64,000 bases of DNA from Escherichia coli (lineage in GTDB: Bacteria > Pseudomonadota > Gammaproteobacteria > Enterobacterales > Enterobacteriaceae), in NCBI RefSeq assembly GCF_024700885.2, contig NZ_CP117016.1; one strand, 5' to 3'. Of the stretch, positions 47,561 through 60,115 are shown in pieces. Position numbers and translations under genes: made by a program. How positions within the stretch are numbered: the first letter of the stretch is position 1; every line of letters starts with the position of its first letter. The notes under the pieces are model-generated. The model was not told the DNA's origin and did no database searches. It saw only the letters and a program-made list of their open reading frames with translations.

Positions 47561-47594
47561 GAAGCCGGAGCGGGAGACTGCTCCGGCTTTTTAG
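47561..47594 (+). terminator. Rho-independent terminator after deoD
   Basis: GCCGGAGCgggagactGCTCCGGC followed by TTTTT. Confidence 0.7.
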
Positions 47595-47690
47595 TATCTA
47601 TTCATCAATAGCAACTGATTTATAGATTTACTATTATTTTTCATATGGATAGAAAATAAAATCCATTCAAGTATCTATTCACGAATCTAT

Positions 47691-47954
47691 TCATTTATGT
47701 TCAGCCGTCATCCAGGAAGGGCATATCAGCAACTCTGGTGGACAACCATAAATTCCTGCCATTTTGCTTTTGATGTTTGAACTAAGCCGTTCCGTCTTTT
47801 CGATCTGTTTTAGAGAATTAATGGAGATACCTAACATTTTACTTACTTCAGCAAGTGATAGTTTATGCCTGATACGCACGGCGGTTAGCCAGGATATACC
47901 CTGGCTGAACATTAAATTGATAATCTCCCGTTCCTGGTTTTCCAGATCGCTCAT
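47691..47954 (-). CDS. Hypothetical small HTH-like protein (occupies the position of yjjJ in K-12)
   Basis: 87-aa ORF with HTH-like LSLAEVSKMLGISINSLKQIE; AT-rich flanking repeats AGTATCTATTCA. Confidence 0.3.
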   Translation of the reverse strand: MSDLENQEREIINLMFSQGISWLTAVRIRHKLSLAEVSKMLGISINSLKQIEKTERLSSNIKSKMAGIYGCPPELLICPSWMTAEHK

Positions 47955-47985
47955 ATTTCCTTCCCTGGATATTTAAATCAGCGAG

Positions 47986-49002
47986 TTACCTTACCGCCCC
48001 CGCTATCCACGCAGACAACTCCCGTAGCTCTTTTTCCTGTTCCGGGAAGTCAACCAACAGCGCTTCGCACTCCTGTTGCAGCATATCCGCGCGGTACAGG
48101 CAGCCTTGCAGTCGCCCGGCGAGGGCTTCCAGCGGCGCGGGGTTGAGGCTGTCGGTAAACACCTGGGCGCGGGTGATATGGCCTTTTTCAACGTCGAAAT
48201 GCAGTTCCACACCGCCCCAGGTAAAGCGTTCATCCAGCAGATGCGAGAATGCCGGAGCCTGACCGAAGTTCCATTCCCAGCTACTCTGGCGGGCAAAGGT
48301 TTCGGCGAAGTTTGGCAAGTCTGGCGTTTTGTCCGGGGAGATGATTTCTGCTTCCACGCGCTCGCCATAATGGGCGAAAAAGGCCTCGGTTATGGCCTCG
48401 CAAACCTGCTCATGGGTGATCCCCGGCAGCAGCTCGGTGAGGTTGGTCACTCGGGAACGTACCGACGTAATGCCTTTCGCCGCCAGTTTCTTTTTATCCG
48501 GATTGAGATAGTTTGCCAGGCGGCTAAGGTCGGCATTGAGCAGCAAGGTGCCGTGGTGGAAGCCGCGATCTTTGGTTTCGCGATAGGCCGAGCCTGAGAC
48601 TTTGCGGTCGCCTTCGGCGGTTTTCACCACCAGATCGTTACGTCCGGACGCTTCGGCGCTGACGCCGAGCGCGTTCAGCGCATTAAGCACAATCGACGTG
48701 GAGATAGTTTTATCGTACTCCGGCTTGCCAGCCATAAAGGTAAAGCAGGTATTACCGAGATCGTGGAACACCGCGCCGCCACCGCTACTGCGCCGCGCCA
48801 GGCGGACGTTATCTTCTTCCATCCGCCGGGTATTACACTCTTTCCACGGGTTCTGTGCGCGACCAATCACTACCGTGTCGGCATTGCGCCAGAGAAACAG
48901 AACGCGCTGCGTGGCGGGCATCTGGCGAAAAATACACTCCTCCACCGCCAGGTTAAACCACGGATCGTAAGAGTCAGAGATGAGCAGGCGTAATGTGGAC
49001 AT
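47986..49002 (-). CDS. lplA: Lipoate-protein ligase A
   Basis: 338 aa, [25 protein letters not shown]. Confidence 0.9.
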
Positions 49003-49029
49003 AACGATTTCCTTTCTTGTAGTAATGGG

Positions 49030-49674
49030 TCACTCTTTTTTCTCGCTTTCTTCCTCTTCCGGCACCGGTTTGCTGGCGGTTAACAGGAAGGGCGATTGCT
49101 GCCAGCGGGTGCGTTTACCCTGTAGCAGCGTGCGGGTCAGCACAACGCCGATTGCCAGTGAGAGCAGCAACATCAGGCGTAAAATGTTAGTGGTGTTATC
49201 CACCTGTTGGGCTTCGGTGGCGAGCGTATGGGTGTCGAGCGTCAGGCGCAGATAGCCGAGCGGTCCGTTTTTCCCGGCAATAGGTTCGACAATCTGCTGG
49301 TTAAAATAGCCGCCCGCTTTTTTGCCGTCGAGCGCCAACCGGTCGCGCACTTCGACGCTTTCGCCAGAACGGGCGATAAGATCGCCTTGTTCGTCATACA
49401 CGCCCGCGTCGAGGATGCGGCTTTCATCCGTTAACTGATCGAGGATCGCCTGAATGCGTTTTTCATCCGGTGAGTCGGTACGCATCAGCGGTGCAACGTT
49501 CAGCGTCACCTGACGCGCCAGGGTGCGGGCCAGTTCTTCCAGCTGTGGATTACGCTGTCGCTGGTGGTTTTGACTAAACCATGACGCTCCCTGCATCAGC
49601 GCCACTAACAAGGCAAGACAGAACAGGACAATCACTGCCCGATGCAGCCGGAATTTCAGTTTTGTGCGAGCCAT
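49030..49674 (-). CDS. ytjB: Inner membrane protein YtjB (Smp)
   Basis: 214 aa with N-terminal TM, conserved position between lplA and serB. Confidence 0.8.
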   Translation of the reverse strand: MARTKLKFRLHRAVIVLFCLALLVALMQGASWFSQNHQRQRNPQLEELARTLARQVTLNVAPLMRTDSPDEKRIQAILDQLTDESRILDAGVYDEQGDLIARSGESVEVRDRLALDGKKAGGYFNQQIVEPIAGKNGPLGYLRLTLDTHTLATEAQQVDNTTNILRLMLLLSLAIGVVLTRTLLQGKRTRWQQSPFLLTASKPVPEEEESEKKE

Positions 49675-49779
49675 CTTCCACCCTTTGAAAATTTGAGACT
49701 TAATGTTGCCAGAAGCAATGGATACAAGGTAGCCTCATGCGTTATTTTCCCTGCTTCGAACGATTTTACAGGAGCCTTA

Positions 49780-50748
49780 ATGCCTAACATTACCTGGTGC
49801 GACCTGCCTGAAGATGTCTCTTTATGGCCCGGTCTGCCTCTTTCATTAAGTGGTGATGAAGTGATGCCACTGGATTACCACGCAGGTCGTAGCGGCTGGC
49901 TGCTGTATGGTCGTGGGCTGGATAAACAACGTCTGACCCAATACCAGAGCAAACTGGGCGCGGCGATGGTGATTGTTGCCGCCTGGTGCGTGGAAGATTA
50001 TCAGGTGATTCGTCTGGCAGGTTCACTCACCGCGCGGGCTACGCGCCTGGCCCACGAAGCGCAGCTGGATGTCGCGCCGCTGGGGAAAATCCCGCACCTG
50101 CGCACGCCGGGTTTGCTGGTGATGGACATGGATTCCACCGCCATCCAGATTGAATGTATTGATGAAATTGCCAAACTGGCCGGAACGGGCGAGATGGTGG
50201 CGGAGGTAACCGAACGGGCGATGCGCGGCGAACTCGATTTTACCGCCAGCCTGCGCAGCCGCGTGGCGACGCTGAAAGGCGCTGACGCCAATATTCTGCA
50301 ACAGGTGCGTGAAAATCTGCCGCTGATGCCAGGCTTAACGCAACTGGTACTCAAGCTGGAAACGCTGGGCTGGAAAGTGGCGATTGCCTCCGGTGGCTTT
50401 ACTTTCTTTGCTGAATACCTGCGCGACAAGCTGCGCCTGACAGCCGTGGTAGCCAATGAACTGGAGATCATGGACGGTAAATTTACCGGCAATGTGATCG
50501 GCGACATCGTAGACGCGCAGTACAAAGCGAAAACTCTAACTCGCCTCGCGCAGGAGTATGAAATCCCGCTGGCGCAGACTGTGGCGATTGGCGATGGAGC
50601 CAATGACCTGCCGATGATCAAAGCGGCAGGGCTGGGGATTGCCTACCATGCCAAGCCAAAAGTGAATGAAAAGACGGAAGTCACCATCCGTCACGCTGAC
50701 CTGATGGGGGTATTCTGCATCCTCTCTGGCAGCCTGAATCAGAAGTAA
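49780..50748 (+). CDS. serB: Phosphoserine phosphatase
   Basis: 322 aa, HAD motif DMDST. Confidence 0.9.
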   Translation: MPNITWCDLPEDVSLWPGLPLSLSGDEVMPLDYHAGRSGWLLYGRGLDKQRLTQYQSKLGAAMVIVAAWCVEDYQVIRLAGSLTARATRLAHEAQLDVAPLGKIPHLRTPGLLVMDMDSTAIQIECIDEIAKLAGTGEMVAEVTERAMRGELDFTASLRSRVATLKGADANILQQVRENLPLMPGLTQLVLKLETLGWKVAIASGGFTFFAEYLRDKLRLTAVVANELEIMDGKFTGNVIGDIVDAQYKAKTLTRLAQEYEIPLAQTVAIGDGANDLPMIKAAGLGIAYHAKPKVNEKTEVTIRHADLMGVFCILSGSLNQK

Positions 50749-50796
50749 TTGCTCGCCCGTCATCCTGCGGGCGGCACAGCATTAACGAGGTACACC

Positions 50797-52179
50797 GTGG
50801 CAAAAGCTCCAAAACGCGCCTTTGTTTGTAATGAATGCGGGGCCGATTATCCGCGCTGGCAGGGGCAGTGCAGTGCCTGTCATGCCTGGAACACCATCAC
50901 CGAGGTGCGTCTTGCTGCGTCGCCAACGGTGGCGCGTAACGAGCGTCTCAGTGGCTATGCCGGTAGCGCCGGGGTGGCAAAAGTCCAGAAACTCTCCGAT
51001 ATCAGCCTTGAAGAGCTGCCGCGTTTTTCCACCGGATTTAAAGAGTTCGACCGCGTACTAGGCGGCGGCGTGGTGCCGGGAAGCGCCATTCTGATTGGCG
51101 GTAACCCAGGTGCGGGGAAATCCACGCTGCTACTGCAAACGCTGTGCAAACTGGCCCAGCAGATGAAAACGCTGTATGTCACTGGCGAAGAGTCGCTGCA
51201 ACAGGTGGCAATGCGCGCTCATCGCCTTGGCCTGCCGACTGACAATCTCAATATGTTGTCGGAAACCAGCATCGAACAGATCTGCCTGATTGCCGAAGAA
51301 GAGCAACCGAAACTGATGGTAATTGACTCGATCCAGGTGATGCATATGGCGGATGTACAATCATCGCCTGGTAGCGTGGCGCAGGTGCGTGAAACGGCGG
51401 CTTATCTGACGCGCTTCGCCAAAACGCGCGGCGTGGCGATTGTCATGGTCGGGCACGTAACCAAAGATGGCTCGCTGGCTGGCCCTAAAGTGCTGGAACA
51501 CTGTATTGACTGTTCGGTGCTTCTGGACGGCGATGCCGACTCCCGTTTCCGCACCTTGCGTAGCCATAAAAACCGCTTCGGCGCGGTGAATGAACTGGGC
51601 GTCTTCGCGATGACCGAACAGGGTCTGCGTGAAGTCAGCAACCCTTCGGCAATCTTTTTAAGCCGCGGTGATGAAGTGACCTCCGGTAGCTCAGTGATGG
51701 TAGTGTGGGAAGGAACGCGTCCGCTGCTGGTGGAGATCCAGGCGCTGGTCGATCACTCGATGATGGCGAATCCACGCCGCGTGGCGGTAGGGCTGGAGCA
51801 AAACCGTCTGGCGATCCTGCTGGCTGTCTTGCACCGTCACGGTGGTCTGCAAATGGCCGATCAGGATGTATTTGTGAACGTGGTCGGCGGCGTGAAGGTA
51901 ACCGAAACCAGCGCCGACTTGGCGTTACTGCTGGCGATGGTTTCCAGCCTGCGTGACAGACCGCTGCCGCAGGATCTGGTGGTGTTTGGTGAAGTCGGGC
52001 TGGCAGGGGAGATCCGCCCGGTGCCCAGCGGTCAGGAACGTATCTCAGAAGCGGCGAAACACGGTTTTCGCCGGGCGATTGTTCCGGCGGCTAACGTACC
52101 GAAAAAAGCGCCGGAAGGGATGCAGATTTTTGGCGTTAAAAAACTCTCCGACGCGCTTAGCGTGTTCGACGACTTATAA
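50797..52179 (+). CDS. radA: DNA repair protein RadA
   Basis: 460 aa from GTG start; zinc finger CNECGADYPRWQGQCSAC, Walker A GNPGAGKST. Confidence 0.9.
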   Translation: MAKAPKRAFVCNECGADYPRWQGQCSACHAWNTITEVRLAASPTVARNERLSGYAGSAGVAKVQKLSDISLEELPRFSTGFKEFDRVLGGGVVPGSAILIGGNPGAGKSTLLLQTLCKLAQQMKTLYVTGEESLQQVAMRAHRLGLPTDNLNMLSETSIEQICLIAEEEQPKLMVIDSIQVMHMADVQSSPGSVAQVRETAAYLTRFAKTRGVAIVMVGHVTKDGSLAGPKVLEHCIDCSVLLDGDADSRFRTLRSHKNRFGAVNELGVFAMTEQGLREVSNPSAIFLSRGDEVTSGSSVMVVWEGTRPLLVEIQALVDHSMMANPRRVAVGLEQNRLAILLAVLHRHGGLQMADQDVFVNVVGGVKVTETSADLALLLAMVSSLRDRPLPQDLVVFGEVGLAGEIRPVPSGQERISEAAKHGFRRAIVPAANVPKKAPEGMQIFGVKKLSDALSVFDDL

Positions 52180-52199
52180 TGAGAGATACGGAGGGAGAT

Positions 52200-53432
52200 A
52201 TGTCGTCATTTGATTACCTGAAAACTGCCATCAAGCAACAAGGCTGCACGCTACAGCAGGTAGCTGATGCCAGCGGTATGACCAAAGGGTATTTAAGCCA
52301 GTTACTGAATGCCAAAATTAAAAGCCCCAGCGCGCAAAAGCTGGAGGCGTTGCACCGTTTTTTGGGGCTTGAGTTTCCCCGGCAGAAGAAAACCATTGGT
52401 GTCGTATTCGGTAAGTTCTACCCGCTGCATACCGGACATATCTACCTTATCCAGCGCGCCTGTAGCCAGGTTGACGAGCTGCATATCATTATGGGCTTTG
52501 ACGATACCCGTGACCGTGCGTTGTTTGAAGACAGCGCCATGTCGCAGCAGCCCACGGTGCCGGATCGTCTGCGCTGGTTATTGCAAACCTTTAAATATCA
52601 GAAAAATATCCGTATTCATGCCTTCAACGAAGAGGGCATGGAGCCGTATCCGCACGGCTGGGATGTGTGGAGCAACGGCATCAAAAAGTTTATGGCTGAA
52701 AAGGGGATCCAGCCGGACCTGATCTACACCTCGGAAGAAGCCGATGCGCCACAGTATATGGAACATCTGGGGATCGAGACGGTGCTGGTCGATCCGAAAC
52801 GCACCTTTATGAGTATCAGCGGTGCGCAGATCCGCGAAAACCCGTTCCGCTACTGGGAATATATTCCCACCGAAGTGAAGCCGTTCTTTGTGCGTACCGT
52901 GGCGATCCTTGGCGGCGAGTCGAGCGGTAAATCAACCCTGGTAAACAAACTTGCTAATATCTTCAACACTACCAGTGCATGGGAATATGGTCGCGATTAT
53001 GTCTTTTCACACCTTGGCGGTGATGAGATCGCATTGCAGTATTCCGACTACGATAAAATCGCGCTGGGACACGCTCAATACATTGATTTTGCAGTGAAAT
53101 ATGCCAATAAAGTGGCGTTTATCGACACTGATTTTGTCACTACCCAGGCGTTCTGCAAAAAGTACGAAGGGCGGGAGCATCCGTTCGTGCAGGCGCTGAT
53201 TGATGAATACCGTTTTGATCTGGTGATCCTGCTGGAGAACAACACCCCGTGGGTGGCGGATGGTTTACGCAGCCTCGGCAGTTCGGTGGATCGCAAAGAG
53301 TTCCAGAACTTGCTGGTGGAGATGCTGGAAGAGAACAATATCGAATTTGTGCGGGTTGAAGAGGACGATTACGACAGCCGTTTCCTGCGCTGTGTGGAGC
53401 TGGTGCGGGAGATGATGGGCGAGCAGAGATAA
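52200..53432 (+). CDS. nadR: NadR trifunctional regulator/NMN adenylyltransferase/ribosylnicotinamide kinase
   Basis: 410 aa; N-terminal HTH, HxGH-type motif (YPLHTGH), Walker A GGESSGKST. Confidence 0.9.
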   Translation: MSSFDYLKTAIKQQGCTLQQVADASGMTKGYLSQLLNAKIKSPSAQKLEALHRFLGLEFPRQKKTIGVVFGKFYPLHTGHIYLIQRACSQVDELHIIMGFDDTRDRALFEDSAMSQQPTVPDRLRWLLQTFKYQKNIRIHAFNEEGMEPYPHGWDVWSNGIKKFMAEKGIQPDLIYTSEEADAPQYMEHLGIETVLVDPKRTFMSISGAQIRENPFRYWEYIPTEVKPFFVRTVAILGGESSGKSTLVNKLANIFNTTSAWEYGRDYVFSHLGGDEIALQYSDYDKIALGHAQYIDFAVKYANKVAFIDTDFVTTQAFCKKYEGREHPFVQALIDEYRFDLVILLENNTPWVADGLRSLGSSVDRKEFQNLLVEMLEENNIEFVRVEEDDYDSRFLRCVELVREMMGEQR

Positions 53433-53465
53433 CCGTGACGAAACGGCTCAAAGGCGAGGTATAAA

Positions 53466-53669
53466 ATGAGTTTTTTTGATAAGTTGAAAACCTCTCTGGA
53501 AGAGGCTGTTGAGATTAAACAAGGTTTAAAAGAACCTGCACGGGTGACCCGCTACGAAATTGCGGATGCTAAGGCTATTCGTGAGCAACTTCATACTCCA
53601 ACTGACCGGTTGCGTAGCCAGAATGCAATCAAATCTGACAGTCCGCTTCGAGCGAAAATCGGAAGTTAG
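53466..53669 (+). CDS. Hypothetical small protein
   Basis: 67-aa ORF convergent with GNAT gene; no motif recognised. Confidence 0.25.
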   Translation: MSFFDKLKTSLEEAVEIKQGLKEPARVTRYEIADAKAIREQLHTPTDRLRSQNAIKSDSPLRAKIGS

Positions 53670-53672
53670 TAG

Positions 53673-54221
53673 CTAGTTACCCAATAACTGCTCCCACTCT
53701 TTCTTGAGTAGAGCGAAAATAAATGTATCATCATATTTTTCTACACCATTATCATGTGTGAACGAGACAAACTCTTTAAAACATCCCTCCTGTCGCATAT
53801 GGAGACGAGCACATAGTTTCTGAGAGGCAAAATTATAGTCTTCAACATATGCATAAAGACGTCTGGCTTCTTTTTCAAAAAACAAATATTGAAATAACGC
53901 AGTGACAGATTCTGTAGCATAGCCTTTACCTTCATACCTCTTGTTAAAATGCCAGCCAACTGACCAGGTATTTCTGTCAGACTCCCCCTTATTATCAGCA
54001 AAGAGATGACCAATTAATTCATCAGTCTCTTTAAGGCAAACGGCAAACTGGCTGTTATCAAGGATTCTGCTGTCTATTTCTTTTATCGCATCTTCCAGGG
54101 AGTTGAGTTTTTCGTCCTGAAAACAAGGTGTGCGAGGTGAAGACAGATAATCGAAAAGTGCAGATGCATCTTTATTTTTGAATGCGCGAATAATGAGTCG
54201 CTCTGTAGTCATGAAGATCAT
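53673..54221 (-). CDS. GNAT family N-acetyltransferase (RimJ/RimL-like)
   Basis: 182 aa; ERLIIR N-terminal motif and acetyl-CoA-binding-like region (KRYEGKGYATESVTAL). Confidence 0.7.
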   Translation of the reverse strand: MIFMTTERLIIRAFKNKDASALFDYLSSPRTPCFQDEKLNSLEDAIKEIDSRILDNSQFAVCLKETDELIGHLFADNKGESDRNTWSVGWHFNKRYEGKGYATESVTALFQYLFFEKEARRLYAYVEDYNFASQKLCARLHMRQEGCFKEFVSFTHDNGVEKYDDTFIFALLKKEWEQLLGN

Positions 54222-54299
54222 GGAAACCTTATGTTATCTGGAGAACTTTTTGTGCATTCTACTAAATAATGATGCTTAGTCATATTAAGCTCATTCTGA

Positions 54300-54590
54300 T
54301 GTGATCAATGTCTACTTTTGGCACTATACGGACGACCAAACCCAATCAGATCCGACCAGCCGTTAGCCAGTGCCAGTTCGGCGCGCGCTTTGGTGTATTT
54401 TCCGGAGTAAATCAGCGTGCCGTGGAAAATTATGCGCAGCGCTTCTGCTGATTTGCGTACCTTCGCAGATGATAAGTCCAGCACTGGCGCGCTGCGCGTA
54501 ATAGGCCGCCATTATGTCAGTCGCAACGTCACCCGCGCGGGAACGCGTCGTCGGTGGCATTACAATACGGTTTATTAATGGCAACGCATT
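54300..54590 (-). pseudogene. Relic of Old-Yellow-Enzyme-family NADH:flavin oxidoreductase (NemA-like), internally deleted
   Basis: ORF 54363-54584 encodes DIMAAYYAQRASAGLIICEGTQIS (OYE N-terminal signature); another frame at 54301-54362 encodes GWSDLIGFGRPYSA (OYE C-terminal signature); the rest of the ~365-aa enzyme is absent. Confidence 0.45.
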
Positions 54591-54632
54591 CAGCGCATAT
54601 TTAGCAAATTACGTAATGGGTCCCTCGCGCGA

Positions 54633-54845
54633 TTATTTATACAGTTCGGCACTCATGGTGACGGTATTGCCCATGCGAGCGCTGGTAATTTTGTATTCAG
54701 AGGCGTTCATCTCTTTCGCTTTCTGCGCAATAACCGCTTCAGCGGAATCCAGTGTTGTACCGGTTGCTGTCACGCTTTGCGCCGATGCGTTAAACGCCGC
54801 GACAGAGAAAAGAGAAGCCGTAAAAATTGCGATGATCGTTTTCAT
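54633..54845 (-). CDS. DUF1471-family small periplasmic protein (YdgH/BhsA/McbA-like)
   Basis: 70 aa with signal peptide, C-terminal SEYKITSA...ELYK pattern. Confidence 0.6.
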   Translation of the reverse strand: MKTIIAIFTASLFSVAAFNASAQSVTATGTTLDSAEAVIAQKAKEMNASEYKITSARMGNTVTMSAELYK

Positions 54846-55002
54846 GTTTATATTCCAGAGTGTCTTAATTGTTTGGCGTTTATTAACGCGATGGGGAGAG
54901 AATACGCCTGCTGCCTGATAACATAAATGATACAAATGACAATAGACTATTCTGATTTTGTTAATAATCAGACGCCGGACGTTCCGACGCCTGTCGATTG
55001 CA

Positions 55003-55419
55003 TCAGGCAACAAAGTTGTCCTTCAGCGCCTTGAGACCATCCCGATAGATGCCGGTAAACAGCGCTTCGGCCTCTTCGTTCGTCACATTCACCGGGGTGA
55101 ATTCACCGAACCATTCCACACGGGAAACCTGGCTGTCGGCGGTTTCATGAACGGTAATGGTGGAGAGGTAATCCACCACCGGGAACGGTGCCTGAATAAT
55201 GGAATAGGTATAACTGCGTTGACGGTTATCAAACGCTTCCAGACGTTCAACCACAGTGCCGCCGTCAGAGGTTGTCAGCGAACGAACGCGACCGCCTTCT
55301 GTCACTACGCTTTTCGGGATGAACGGCAGCCAGTCTGGCAGCGCATCAAAGCCGCCCATCAATTGCCATACGGCGTCGGTAGAAGCCGGAATTTCGATCG
55401 ATACAGTTGTTTTAGCCAT
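55003..55419 (-). CDS. SRPBCC-family protein (polyketide cyclase/dehydrase-like fold)
   Basis: 138 aa, MAKTTVSIEIPASTDAVWQLM pattern. Confidence 0.55.
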   Translation of the reverse strand: MAKTTVSIEIPASTDAVWQLMGGFDALPDWLPFIPKSVVTEGGRVRSLTTSDGGTVVERLEAFDNRQRSYTYSIIQAPFPVVDYLSTITVHETADSQVSRVEWFGEFTPVNVTNEEAEALFTGIYRDGLKALKDNFVA

Positions 55420-55444
55420 GATAATTTTCTCTTAATTTATAGGG

Positions 55445-56242
55445 TTACATAGTCAGGGTGTCGACGACACCGCCATCGACGCGCAGGGCTGCCCCTGTGG
55501 TTGCCGAGGAAAGCGGTGACGCGAGATAAACCGCCAGATTCGCTACTTCTTCCACATCCGCCGCACGCTGGATGATGGAGCTCGGACGCGAGGTTTTAAC
55601 AAACTCATCGGCCTGTTCACGCGCACTGCGTCCCGATTGTGCAGCGGCATCCGCCAGCATCTCTTTCAGGCCATCGGTAAAGGTTGGCCCTGGCAGAATG
55701 GCGTTGACGGTCACACCGGTCCCCGCCAGTCGTTTCGCCAGACCATGAGAAACCGCCAGATTCGCGGCTTTGGTGACGCCGTAGTTGATCATGTCGCCAG
55801 GGATTGCCACGCCGGATTCGGACGAGACAAAAATAATCCGCCCCCAGCCCTGTTCCGTCATGCCTGGCGCATAGTGACGCGCCAGACGAACGCCGGAGAG
55901 GACGTTGACGTTATAGAAGTGCATCCACTCATCATCCGGAACGCTAAAGAAATCTTTATCGTTAAAAATGCCCAGATTATTGACCAGCACATCAGCCGTT
56001 GGGACTGCAGCGATCAGCGCAGCCACGCCGTCTTCGGTGCTGAGATCCGCCACCACGCCGCGCAGTGACGCTGTGGGGGTTTGTGCCGCAATCGCAGCCA
56101 TGGCGTCATCAACGCCGCTCTGTTTACGGCCGACGACAACCACCGTTGCGCCTGCTTTTGCCAGTCCGGCGGCGATACCCTGCCCAATGCCGGAGGTTGA
56201 GCCGCTGACCACCGCGACTTTACCTGTCAGATCCAGTTTCAT
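55445..56242 (-). CDS. Short-chain dehydrogenase/reductase (SDR)
   Basis: TGKVAVVSGSTSGIGQGIA NAD(P)-binding motif; start chosen at MKLDLTGK. Confidence 0.8.
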   Translation of the reverse strand: MKLDLTGKVAVVSGSTSGIGQGIAAGLAKAGATVVVVGRKQSGVDDAMAAIAAQTPTASLRGVVADLSTEDGVAALIAAVPTADVLVNNLGIFNDKDFFSVPDDEWMHFYNVNVLSGVRLARHYAPGMTEQGWGRIIFVSSESGVAIPGDMINYGVTKAANLAVSHGLAKRLAGTGVTVNAILPGPTFTDGLKEMLADAAAQSGRSAREQADEFVKTSRPSSIIQRAADVEEVANLAVYLASPLSSATTGAALRVDGGVVDTLTM

Positions 56243-56261
56243 CGTTTTCTCACCAGGTTGA

Positions 56262-57272
56262 TTAACGGGTCGGCAGCGGAGCGTTTTCCGCAACCAGATT
56301 TTGACGGCGCATTTCTGCCCAGAATTCAGCCGGAACAGGCGCATTCAGTGCAGCCAGATCTTCTGCCATACGGCCAGGACGGCTGGAGCCAGGAATAACC
56401 GCTGCAACGGCCGGGTTTGCCAGCGCGAACTGCAGCGCAGCCGCTTTAACGTTCACATTGAAACGTGTGGCAATGGCGTTAATTTGCGCCACTTTCTGCT
56501 GGATGGCCGCAGAAGCTTTCTGATATTCAAAGTGCTCGCCGCCTGCCAGTACGCCAGAGCTGTACGGACCGCCCACAACAATATCCACGTTCTGTTCCAG
56601 TGCTTCTGGCATCAGGCGTTGCAGCGCACGTTCGTGATCCAGCAGGGAATAACGCCCCGCCAGCAGGAACGCATCTGGCTTCGGTTCGTCCAGCGCCAGC
56701 GTCAGTTCACAAGGTTCGACGCGGTTCACACCCAGTCCCCAGGCTTTAATCACACCTTCGTCACGCAAACGTGTCAGTGCACGAAACGCACCGGTACGGG
56801 CTATGTTGAACTGTTCCAGCCAGCTGTCACCGTAGAAGTCCTGTGCCGGGTCGTGGATCCAGACAATATCCAGACGGTCTGTTTTCAGGCGTTTCAGGCT
56901 GTCTTCAATCGAGCGCAGCGTGGCGTCAGCAGAGTAGTCATTCAGAATTTTGTTTTTCAGGCCGTATTCGAACAGGCCACCTTTTTCACCGAAATCACGT
57001 TTTGCCGGATCTTCCATTTCGTCCAGCATGATGCGACCGACTTTGCTGCTCAGAACGTATTCATCACGTGGATACTGAGACAGCGCTTCGCCTATGCGGA
57101 TTTCAGAAAGGCCAGAGCCGTACAGCGGCGCGGTATCAAAGTAACGCACGCCCAGGTTCCAGGCTTCGCTCACGGTGGCGTGGGCCTCGTCTTCCAGAAT
57201 GGCACGGAACATGTTGCCGAGTGGTGCGCCGCCTAAGCCAATTTTGCCGGGAAGTAAATTTTTGATGCTCAT
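56262..57272 (-). CDS. Aldo-keto reductase family oxidoreductase
   Basis: 336 aa, IGLGGAPLGNMF AKR N-terminal signature. Confidence 0.75.
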   Translation of the reverse strand: MSIKNLLPGKIGLGGAPLGNMFRAILEDEAHATVSEAWNLGVRYFDTAPLYGSGLSEIRIGEALSQYPRDEYVLSSKVGRIMLDEMEDPAKRDFGEKGGLFEYGLKNKILNDYSADATLRSIEDSLKRLKTDRLDIVWIHDPAQDFYGDSWLEQFNIARTGAFRALTRLRDEGVIKAWGLGVNRVEPCELTLALDEPKPDAFLLAGRYSLLDHERALQRLMPEALEQNVDIVVGGPYSSGVLAGGEHFEYQKASAAIQQKVAQINAIATRFNVNVKAAALQFALANPAVAAVIPGSSRPGRMAEDLAALNAPVPAEFWAEMRRQNLVAENAPLPTR

Positions 57273-57405
57273 AAGATGTCCTCAATTATTCGGTTTGGGT
57301 TAGGGCATTTTTTTGCTATCGCCCTGTGACGTGGATCACAATACCTTGCGAGGTTGTGACTTGATAGGACATAATTCGTCTGACTTAAGTCCTTTGAGGT
57401 CTAAC

Positions 57406-58293
57406 ATGATTGATTTACGCCAACTGAAGTACTTCGTGGTGGTCGCAGAAGAAGAGCACGTGGGACGCGCAGCCGAGCGATTACATATCTCGCAATCACC
57501 GCTGAGCCGCCAGATTGCACAACTGGAAGAACGGCTGGGGCTGACGCTGTTTGAGCGTAATCAGCAGCGCATTCGCCTGACCGCTGATGGACAGACATTC
57601 CTTGCCGAAACACGTTCGTTGCTGACACACGCCAACCGCCTGGAGTCGTTAGGCAAACGCCTGGGACGGGGGGAAGATGGTGGCTTGTGTATTGGCTATA
57701 TCGAAAACGCCATGCATTCCGGTGTGCTTTCTACGGCGCTACGTACGTTACGTGTATCGCGTCCGAATGTGCATATTGCACTTTACAGCCAACCACCGGC
57801 GACCCAGATTGAAGGCCTGCGCCAGCGCAGTCTCGATTTTTCTCTGGTCGATACGCCGCCCACCGACAGCGAGCAGGATCTGGAATATATTCAGGTTCTG
57901 GATGATCGAATGTTGTTGGCCTTACCGCAAAATCATCCTCTGGCGCAGGAGGAAAACCTTGTCGCGTCACAACTTGGCGATGAGCAGTGGATTGCGGTGA
58001 TTCATAACGACGATGCGCATTCTCGCGATCATTTTGTCGCCGCCTGTGTTAACGCCGGGTTTAATCCTGATATTCGCCTGGAAGCGGGTGAACCCCTCAC
58101 GGCATTAGGTCTGGTCGCTGCGGGATTAGGTCTGGCCTTAATTCAACATAGTCTGCGTCATAATGCGCCGGAAGGGGTGGTATTACGTGAATTGCCGTGG
58201 ATGAATTATTCAACGCAATTATGGGCAGCCTGGCATAAAGCCAACCAACGTCCGCTGGTTTCCCATTTCCGCCAGATTTTGCGCGGTGAATAA
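57406..58293 (+). CDS. LysR-family transcriptional regulator
   Basis: N-terminal HTH LRQLKYFVVVAEEEHVGRAAERLHISQSPLSRQIAQLE; divergent from oxidoreductase genes. Confidence 0.8.
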   Translation: MIDLRQLKYFVVVAEEEHVGRAAERLHISQSPLSRQIAQLEERLGLTLFERNQQRIRLTADGQTFLAETRSLLTHANRLESLGKRLGRGEDGGLCIGYIENAMHSGVLSTALRTLRVSRPNVHIALYSQPPATQIEGLRQRSLDFSLVDTPPTDSEQDLEYIQVLDDRMLLALPQNHPLAQEENLVASQLGDEQWIAVIHNDDAHSRDHFVAACVNAGFNPDIRLEAGEPLTALGLVAAGLGLALIQHSLRHNAPEGVVLRELPWMNYSTQLWAAWHKANQRPLVSHFRQILRGE

Positions 58294-58447
58294 AACGTTA
58301 AGCGGGAACCATGAGTTCCCGCTTGATTTGAGATGTCAGTCCGCATCTGAGCTAATACGCTTAAAGAAAATTCTGCCTTTTCCGGGGACTCATCATTTAA
58401 CTAATACCGGCTGCGATGCTGGCGCGCCGCATCCGGCATTTTACGCA

Positions 58448-60115
58448 TTACTTCGCAATGCGCTTGTACTTGATACGCTTCGGCTCCAGCGCGTCTGCGC
58501 CCAGCGTGCGTTTCTTGTACTCTTCGTACTCGGTAAAGTTACCTTCGAAGAACTCAACTTTACCTTCATCCTGGTAGTCCAGGATGTGCGTGGCGATACG
58601 GTCGAGGAACCAACGGTCGTGCGAGATAACCATCGCGCAGCCCGGGAACTCCAGCAGGGCGTTTTCCAGCGCACGCAGGGTTTCGATATCCAGGTCGTTG
58701 GTTGGTTCGTCGAGCAGCAGCATGTTGCCGCCAACTTGCAGCAGCTTCGCCAGATGCAGACGACCGCGCTCACCGCCGGAGAGTTCACCAACGCGTTTAC
58801 CCTGATCAACCCCTTTAAAGTTAAAGCGGCCAACGTAGGCGCGGCTTGGCATCTCGGTGTTGCCGATTTTCATGATATCCAGCCCGCCGGAAACTTCTTC
58901 CCAAACGGTTTTGCTGTTATCCATTGAGTCACGGAACTGATCAACCGATGCCAGTTTCACCGTTTCACCCAAAGTGATGGTGCCGCTGTCCGGCTGTTCC
59001 TGACCAGAGATCATACGGAACAGCGTCGATTTACCCGCACCGTTCGGACCGATGATCCCGACGATCGCCCCTTTCGGGATCGAGAAACTCAGATCATCAA
59101 TCAGCAGACGATCGCCATAGGATTTACGCAGATTGCTGACTTCCAGCACTTTGTCGCCCAGACGCGGTCCAGGTGGAATAAACAGTTCGTTGGTTTCGTT
59201 ACGTTTCTGATATTCGGTGCTGTTCAGCTCTTCAAAGCGTGCCAGACGTGCTTTACCTTTCGACTGACGGCCTTTAGTTCCCTGACGTACCCACTCCAGC
59301 TCTTTCTCAATCGACTTACGACGCGCCGCTTCTTGTGAAGCTTCCTGCGCCAGGCGCTGATCTTTCTGCTCCAGCCAGGAGGAGTAGTTGCCTTCCCACG
59401 GAATACCTTCACCGCGGTCCAGTTCGAGGATCCAGCCTGCAACGTTATCGAGGAAGTAACGGTCGTGAGTAATCGCTACAACGGTGCCTTCGAAGTCGTG
59501 CAGGAAGCGTTCCAGCCACGCCACGGATTCGGCATCCAGGTGGTTCGTCGGTTCGTCGAGCAGCAGCATGTCTGGTTTTTCCAGCAGCAGGCGGCACAAC
59601 GCCACGCGACGACGCTCACCACCGGAGAGGTTAGCGATTTTCGCGTCCCAGTCCGGCAGACGCAGCGCATCCGCCGCACGCTCCAGCTGAACGTTCAGGT
59701 TGTGACCGTCGTGAGCCTGAATGATCTCTTCCAGACGGCCCTGTTCAGCGGCCAGTTTGTCAAAATCGGCATCCGGATCGGCGTACAGCGCATACACTTC
59801 ATCCAGACGTTTCAGAGCGTTAACCACTTCAGAAACCGCTTCTTCAATGGACTCACGTACGGTGTGTTCCGGGTTGAGCTGAGGTTCCTGCGGCAGATAA
59901 CCAATCTTGATATCCGGTTGCGGACGCGCTTCGCCTTCGATGTCTTTATCAATGCCCGCCATAATGCGCAGCAGGGTGGACTTACCCGCGCCGTTCAGAC
60001 CCAGGACACCAATTTTTGCCCCAGGGAAGAAACTCAGAGAGATGTTTTTCAAAATATGACGTTTCGGCGGAACAACTTTGCCGACACGATGCATGGTATA
60101 AACGAATTGAGCCAC
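58448..60115 (-). CDS. ettA: Energy-dependent translational throttle protein EttA (ABC-F)
   Basis: 555 aa, two ABC domains (GLNGAGKST, GPNGAGKST). Confidence 0.9.
   Translation of the reverse strand: MAQFVYTMHRVGKVVPPKRHILKNISLSFFPGAKIGVLGLNGAGKSTLLRIMAGIDKDIEGEARPQPDIKIGYLPQEPQLNPEHTVRESIEEAVSEVVNALKRLDEVYALYADPDADFDKLAAEQGRLEEIIQAHDGHNLNVQLERAADALRLPDWDAKIANLSGGERRRVALCRLLLEKPDMLLLDEPTNHLDAESVAWLERFLHDFEGTVVAITHDRYFLDNVAGWILELDRGEGIPWEGNYSSWLEQKDQRLAQEASQEAARRKSIEKELEWVRQGTKGRQSKGKARLARFEELNSTEYQKRNETNELFIPPGPRLGDKVLEVSNLRKSYGDRLLIDDLSFSIPKGAIVGIIGPNGAGKSTLFRMISGQEQPDSGTITLGETVKLASVDQFRDSMDNSKTVWEEVSGGLDIMKIGNTEMPSRAYVGRFNFKGVDQGKRVGELSGGERGRLHLAKLLQVGGNMLLLDEPTNDLDIETLRALENALLEFPGCAMVISHDRWFLDRIATHILDYQDEGKVEFFEGNFTEYEEYKKRTLGADALEPKRIKYKRIAK

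Follow-up and report, generated by a model that had tools for sequence, protein, structure and literature searches.

A 297-bp stretch on the minus strand of the window (the whole 64,000-nucleotide piece of Escherichia coli DNA analysed here), at 54614-54318, is almost certainly a non-functional pseudogene of a 365-codon gene of the Old Yellow Enzyme (OYE; PF00724) family, the last gene of a redox cluster. Only 99 of the 365 codons are left, and these are split over two reading frames. An earlier reading, made from the sequence alone, had described an internally deleted OYE relic that had collapsed to about 0.3 kb, and this description holds: two blocks align to an intact, syntenic 365-aa gene, and they meet at one clean 686-bp junction. 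That account recognized the internal deletion; a base-by-base comparison with the intact copy (locus L019; Table 1) brought the lesions to five, adding four that had been overlooked: a missing start codon, a stop at codon 2, a 6-bp deletion and the absence of the final 35 codons. We have filed the relic as a pseudogene of the OYE family, and not as a functional member, because the flanking cluster is 97.7% identical to that of L019 and an intact ORF of 365 aa stands there in the place of the relic. The relic combines disabling lesions, relative to an intact ortholog, with relaxed constraint, and it presumably makes no functional product.

Table 1. Positions of the OYE relic, its lesions and the surrounding island in the window.
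Feature	Position	Strand	Basis and remarks
N-terminal OYE fragment	54447..54614	-	Parent codons 1-58, 56 left; 93.2% DNA identity to L019 7955-8174; codon-by-codon comparison; PF00724 E=1.9e-7
C-terminal OYE fragment	54318..54446	-	Codons 288-330, in a frame different from that of the N-terminal fragment; 92.2% DNA identity to L019 8861-8989; SYE1 residues 285-327; PF00724 positions 282-325
Mechanical 73-aa ORF, TTG start	54363..54584	-	Reads the N-terminal fragment, then out of frame past the junction; contains DIMAAYYAQRASAGLIICEGTQIS
Mechanical 59-aa ORF, GTG start	54305..54484	-	Reads the C-terminal fragment; ends ...ANGWSDLIGFGRPYSAKSRH
Lost start codon, ATG to ACG	54612..54614	-	Comparison with L019; common to 6/6 aligned E. 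coli alleles
Premature stop at codon 2, TTA (Leu) to TAA	54609..54611	-	Comparison with L019; common to 6/6 aligned E. coli alleles
Site of 6-bp in-frame deletion, Ala27-Gly28 of RAGAGD lost	54536..54537	-	Alignment to L019; polymorphic among E. coli carriers
Junction of 686-bp internal deletion	54446..54447	-	L019 8175-8860 removed (codons 59-286 and 2 nt of codon 287), frame shifted; BLAST blocks and junction sequences
3' truncation point of relic	54315..54318	-	Homology to the intact gene stops at 54318 (after codon 330), last 35 codons gone; sequence common to class A and class B stops at 54315
Accessory island, relic as terminal gene	53580..58422	.	Between nadR/nadS' and ettA, 4.8 kb, in ~9% of complete E. 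coli genomes; K-12 has ~135 bp of REP-like sequence instead
Rest of cluster, intact	54633..58293	.	Annotation of identical genomes; 97.7% identity to L019
DUF1471/YdgH-BhsA gene	54633-54845	-	Annotation of identical genomes
SRPBCC gene	55003-55419	-	Annotation of identical genomes
SDR gene	55445-56242	-	Annotation of identical genomes
Aldo/keto reductase gene	56262-57272	-	Annotation of identical genomes
LysR regulator gene, divergent	57406-58293	+	Annotation of identical genomes
Low-GC (37-41%) segment, 647 bp, abutting the cut 3' end of the relic	53668..54314	.	GNAT acetyltransferase gene at 53673-54221 (-); in only 19/5,426 genomes

By profile match, the relic belongs to the OYE family. The N-terminal piece scored 31.1 bits against the Pfam profile (cut-off 27) at positions 12-68 of 342, and the 73-aa ORF in which the sequence-only reading had seen an OYE N-terminal signature was recovered with that signature in it. 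The C-terminal piece alone reached only 15.1 bits (E=0.015), which is below the same cut-off, although at collinear positions of the profile. Such a score would suit the view that the OYE likeness is chance or low-complexity sequence and that no OYE gene ever stood here. However, the probability of this view is close to nil: the two pieces concatenated matched SYE1 (2GOU) with E=1.8e-26 in a phmmer search of the PDB, in two collinear stretches (SYE1 residues 9-65 and 285-327 of 365); the DNA is 92-93% identical to an intact OYE gene, with synteny kept; and the DUF1471-OYE gene pair is also kept in a Kluyvera ascorbata locus (L005/L006). Chance similarity, which had been named beforehand as a finding that would overturn the assignment, therefore does not apply. 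What the relic lacks is a complete (beta/alpha)8 barrel of ~340-365 residues, encoded in one frame with a start codon.

The intact counterpart came from a scan of one genome per species, as a 365-codon ORF (L019 8001-9098) in CP089930.1, which is labelled 'Escherichia coli strain E69'. This ORF is preceded by the cluster seen in the window (LysR, aldo/keto reductase, SDR, SRPBCC and DUF1471 (YdgH/BhsA)), and window 58324-54447 is 97.7% identical to L019 4291-8174 over ~3.9 kb, up to the break. The N-terminal BLAST block extends from window 54660 to 54447 and the C-terminal block from 54446 to 54318 (129 bp), after which homology stops. Synteny with an intact gene thus establishes descent from a member of the OYE family. 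These block boundaries are those of local BLAST; a global MAFFT alignment to the Kluyvera locus put the C-terminal fragment in the wrong place.

The L019 cluster adjoins yhiN and not nadR-ettA, and its core flank (uspA-pitA-yhiN) is only ~94% identical to E. coli, with 5,422 of the 5,426 best matches in the 90-95% band. The host is for this reason regarded as a divergent Escherichia, and CP089930.1 (4.44 Mb) is probably a cryptic Escherichia lineage under an E. coli label. Furthermore, the 97.7% identity of the island beside yhiN, as against ~94% for the core flank, suggests that the cluster has moved horizontally. The 4 kb downstream of the L019 OYE gene, including the 3' part of a 1,965-aa ORF, had no megablast match in E. 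coli. Beyond Escherichia, a query derived from the Kluyvera ascorbata ortholog gave full-length matches, with 70-84% protein identity, in Kluyvera, Yokenella, Citrobacter amalonaticus, Kosakonia, Pseudocitrobacter, Trabulsiella and Serratia. Identity to a Yokenella regensburgei locus (L011) is 81.6%, again from the LysR side as far as the break. For the loci of other relatives (Kluyvera, Citrobacter amalonaticus), the match covers the DUF1471 region and what follows it. It was the genome contig scan that yielded the full-length copies; a word-indexed protein search returned nearly all short family fragments, with no full-length ortholog among the top matches.

The largest lesion is the 686-bp deletion, at which the relic reads CAAATCAGC joined directly to AGAAGCGCTG; the string ...CAAATCAGC joined to AGAAGCGCTGCG can be used to search for this junction. 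Residues 59-287 (229 residues) are missing as a result, and with them 63% of the (beta/alpha)8 barrel. The sequence-only reading had estimated a loss of roughly 300 residues, and had placed a C-terminal OYE signature in a second frame. The motif is indeed present (GWSDLIGFGRPYSA, 54320-54361), but the homology already begins at 54446, 84 nt farther upstream, and the gap is smaller than estimated for this reason. No convincing microhomology or direct repeats were seen at the junction in the alignment to L019. The HGANGY motif, with His183, Asn186 and Tyr188 of the intact ortholog, falls within the deleted residues. We take it as established knowledge that in OYE enzymes His183/Asn186 are the substrate-binding pair and Tyr188 is the catalytic proton donor; the relic has neither an active-site His/Asn (or His/His) pair nor the proton-donor Tyr. 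At the other end of the gene, the last 35 codons have been replaced by the low-GC GNAT acetyltransferase segment. The 6-bp deletion is present in the window and in alleles L004, L086 and L085, and is absent in L003 and L087.

The relic was found in 482 of the 5,426 complete E. coli genomes, and among the matches listed the match crosses the junction in one piece in every carrier. Base-by-base alignment of six carrier alleles, drawn from all three downstream arrangements (classes A, B and C, described below), showed that the ACG start, the TAA stop and the deletion junction are identical in each. A search of the 5,426 complete genomes for the deleted 686 bp gave no close match, only paralogous alkene reductases at ~70% identity. 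Moreover, 18 independently assembled complete genomes, strain 1190 among them, match window 53400-55500 (2.1 kb) at essentially 100% identity. Taken together, these results leave practically no room for the alternative that an intact gene merely looks collapsed through a sequencing or assembly error in a single genome, and so dispose of the second objection that the sequence-only reading had raised against itself. The identical junction could serve as a marker of the island lineage. In strain 1190, which is otherwise 99.99% identical over window 47573-61500, we noted that window 1-35776 has no match to the corresponding stretch, which carries an hsd/mrr/symE restriction region there, and that there is an IS1397 insertion which the window lacks at ~47573-47580. 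The window thus derives from another class A strain (classes are described below).

Comparison with L019 also indicated how the relic has changed relative to its neighbours. Across its 99 codons there were 12 nonsynonymous and 5 synonymous codon changes, whereas the four upstream genes (54633-57272: DUF1471, SRPBCC, SDR and aldo/keto reductase) showed 7 nonsynonymous changes as against 39 synonymous ones, and dN/dS in these four cluster genes was 0-0.1. Similarly, identity among E. coli alleles was 94-98% for the relic and mostly 98-100% for island genes. On these counts the relic drifts freely, its constraint relaxed. Strong purifying selection acts on the four measured neighbours, and the rest of the cluster therefore appears functional, with only its last gene dead. 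Further damage is specific to particular strains: L003 and L087 carry ATG>CTG in the allele alignment, and one E. coli protein on record (P0001, 77 aa) reads MNALPLKNRIIMPPMTRSRAGDVTTDMMADYYAQRASAGL followed by SSAKVRKSAEALRIIFHGTLIYSGKYTKARAE..., where a further small indel puts the N-terminal fragment in the frame of the C-terminal fragment. This fusion is another sign of free drift.

A rival reading gives the remnant a new role, with the 73-aa or 59-aa ORF as a functional small protein, or the relic as a 3'-UTR regulatory RNA of the DUF1471 gene or the aldo/keto reductase operon. A terminator scan found no terminator-like site between the DUF1471 stop and the relic, and read-through is therefore plausible; for this reason the relic may still be transcribed passively, as the tail of the upstream genes. 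The relic has also been kept in 482 genomes, and a 14-nt inverted repeat (54429-54442/54489-54502; 93% complementary, 46-nt spacer) straddles the 686-bp junction. The two arms of this repeat are the codons for YYAQRA in the N-terminal fragment and those for EALRII in the C-terminal fragment, and we judged the repeat to be chance because a repeat scan of 1.3 kb returned six pairs of like length and quality. The ORFs, however, vary in length: the 73-aa ORF has a 61-aa form on record (P0009), and the ORF that is 59 aa in class A is cut to 42 aa in class B by TGG>TAG in the C-terminal fragment and is mostly deleted in class C strains. The substitutions are mainly nonsynonymous, the relic changes faster than its flanks, and an Rfam scan gave no match in the relic. 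Re-use of the remnant is thus very unlikely, and simple decay of the OYE gene is the reading that we prefer.

The parent of the relic can be placed within the OYE family through its intact ortholog. The closest solved relative is SYE1, the Shewanella oneidensis OYE homologue (2GOU, 4AWS), which matches the ortholog over residues 2-364 and scores 464 bits, as against 344 for the best chain named NemA. SYE1 is a complete 365-residue FMN-binding barrel, whereas the relic retains its 99 codons in two frames without a start codon. E. coli NemA (N-ethylmaleimide reductase, b1650) is also a PF00724 protein of 365 aa with the same N- and C-terminal signature motifs, and the sequence-only reading had called the relic 'NemA-like'. 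This is right at the level of the OYE family, but the relic is no copy of nemA: NemA is a paralog and not the parent, the intact ortholog is only 48% identical to it, and the score of this ortholog against the NCBIfam NemA subfamily profile NF007899 (396.4 bits) falls just below the curated cut-off of 403. In K-12, nemA lies elsewhere, beside nemR and gloA. The L019 ortholog, by comparison, is full length and follows the same upstream cluster as the relic.

A literature search returned nothing specific to the OYE relic locus between nadR and ettA. The relic is an ordinary pseudogene that RefSeq annotation has already flagged. For the same locus and sequence, PGAP/RefSeq gives the label 'alkene reductase, incomplete; partial in the middle of a contig; missing C-terminus' to the N-terminal piece (e.g. 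AC9VRU_RS07680, NZ_OZ547143.1), and calls the C-terminal 59-aa ORF 'oxidoreductase' (WP_024195856.1) or 'hypothetical protein'. The two pieces are kept as separate features, and the annotation makes no statement of a 686-bp deletion joining the ends of one gene, of the lost start or of the stop at codon 2. The value for annotation is that two short ORFs and an 'incomplete alkene reductase' should become one pseudogene feature. The relic is a textbook example of how a gene decays at the margin of an accessory island, and its significance is small.

The relic lies at the edge of the island, which is absent from K-12, where the order is nadR, truncated nadS, ~135 bp of REP-like sequence and ettA. 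Three arrangements were found on this side of the relic in E. coli. Class A, that of the window, comprises 19 genomes, in which nadS' is followed by the 647-bp GNAT segment (53668-54314) and then by the relic. Class B (21 genomes, e.g. PCN033) has a 1,502-bp TauE/SafE and winged-helix segment at exactly the same two boundaries (L004 3269-4770). Class C, the other 442 genomes by subtraction, carries a further 726-bp deletion (53651-54376) with TTCG microhomology, which leaves only 70 bp of the C-terminal fragment. Two unrelated segments, one GNAT and the other TauE/SafE plus winged-helix, thus occupy identical boundaries (53667/53668 and 54314/54315) in different E. coli lineages. Neither segment had a match, at the DNA or protein level, in related loci of other genera, and no cassette-free undeleted junction, with 53667 joined straight to 54315, was found in E. 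coli genomes. In class B, an 11-bp inverted repeat (AAGCGGAAGTT and AACTTCCGCTT) lies exactly at both segment junctions (L004 3258-3268 and 4763-4773); the window, as class A, has only the left arm, in the variant form AATCGGAAGTT (53657-53667). One could imagine the gap between nadS' and the OYE gene as a small cassette-exchange site, and not a random scar, where site-specific or hairpin-mediated exchange cost the OYE gene its 3' end, but we consider this improbable.

The neighbouring nadS (53466-53669, +) is itself a truncated pseudogene, with a match to only residues 1-44 of the 94-residue NadS profile, and PGAP marks it as incomplete. In K-12, only the 5' part of nadS is kept, as far as the equivalent of window 53579, and is followed by the REP-like sequence. 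Related sequence matched in up to four places per genome at lower identity, and the matches listed fall under NadS family protein annotations.

We propose the following history for the relic. The parent would have been a 365-residue, SYE1-like/NemA-like FMN-dependent alkene reductase, encoded last in a five-gene cluster of aldo/keto reductase, SDR, SRPBCC, DUF1471 and OYE genes. It would have been inactivated and later eroded through the loss of the start codon, the stop at codon 2 and the single frameshifting 686-bp deletion, which took the His/Asn pair and the catalytic Tyr. Since nadS and the OYE gene are convergent, one rearrangement between them would explain the loss of both 3' ends, the gap now being filled by the GNAT-bearing segment. 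The order of the early lesions is the part of this history that we infer; the lesions themselves, the homology, the synteny, the presence in six alleles and the relaxed constraint were observed directly.

A variant of this history, compatible with the main explanation, is that the island entered E. coli with the gene already dead, after decay in a donor lineage from which the relic was then transferred horizontally. Three founding lesions are common to all six E. coli alleles, no intact copy was found in any E. coli genome searched, and the sole intact Escherichia copy is at the other locus, beside yhiN, where the difference in identity between island and core flank was noted above. However, the same pattern would follow if the gene had decayed once, early, in an E. 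coli ancestor and had since been inherited vertically, with recombination. The 3' truncation, moreover, took in nadS, which is resident at the E. coli site, and at least this lesion would therefore have occurred in place. We put the chance of arrival as a dead gene at somewhat less than even.

Damage to this gene is also seen outside E. coli. One Kluyvera ascorbata assembly, with flanks 99% identical to ATCC 33433, has a separate 166-bp frameshifting deletion in the OYE ortholog after the DUF1471 gene (L005 8413/8414 versus L006 8414-8579), which would make it an independent inactivation of the OYE gene in at least one further genus. Several family fragments in the protein database (P0005, P0011; 125 aa) also leave the frame right after AGWKK. 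The Kluyvera deletion and these frameshifted fragments could represent either recurrent inactivations or sequencing errors.
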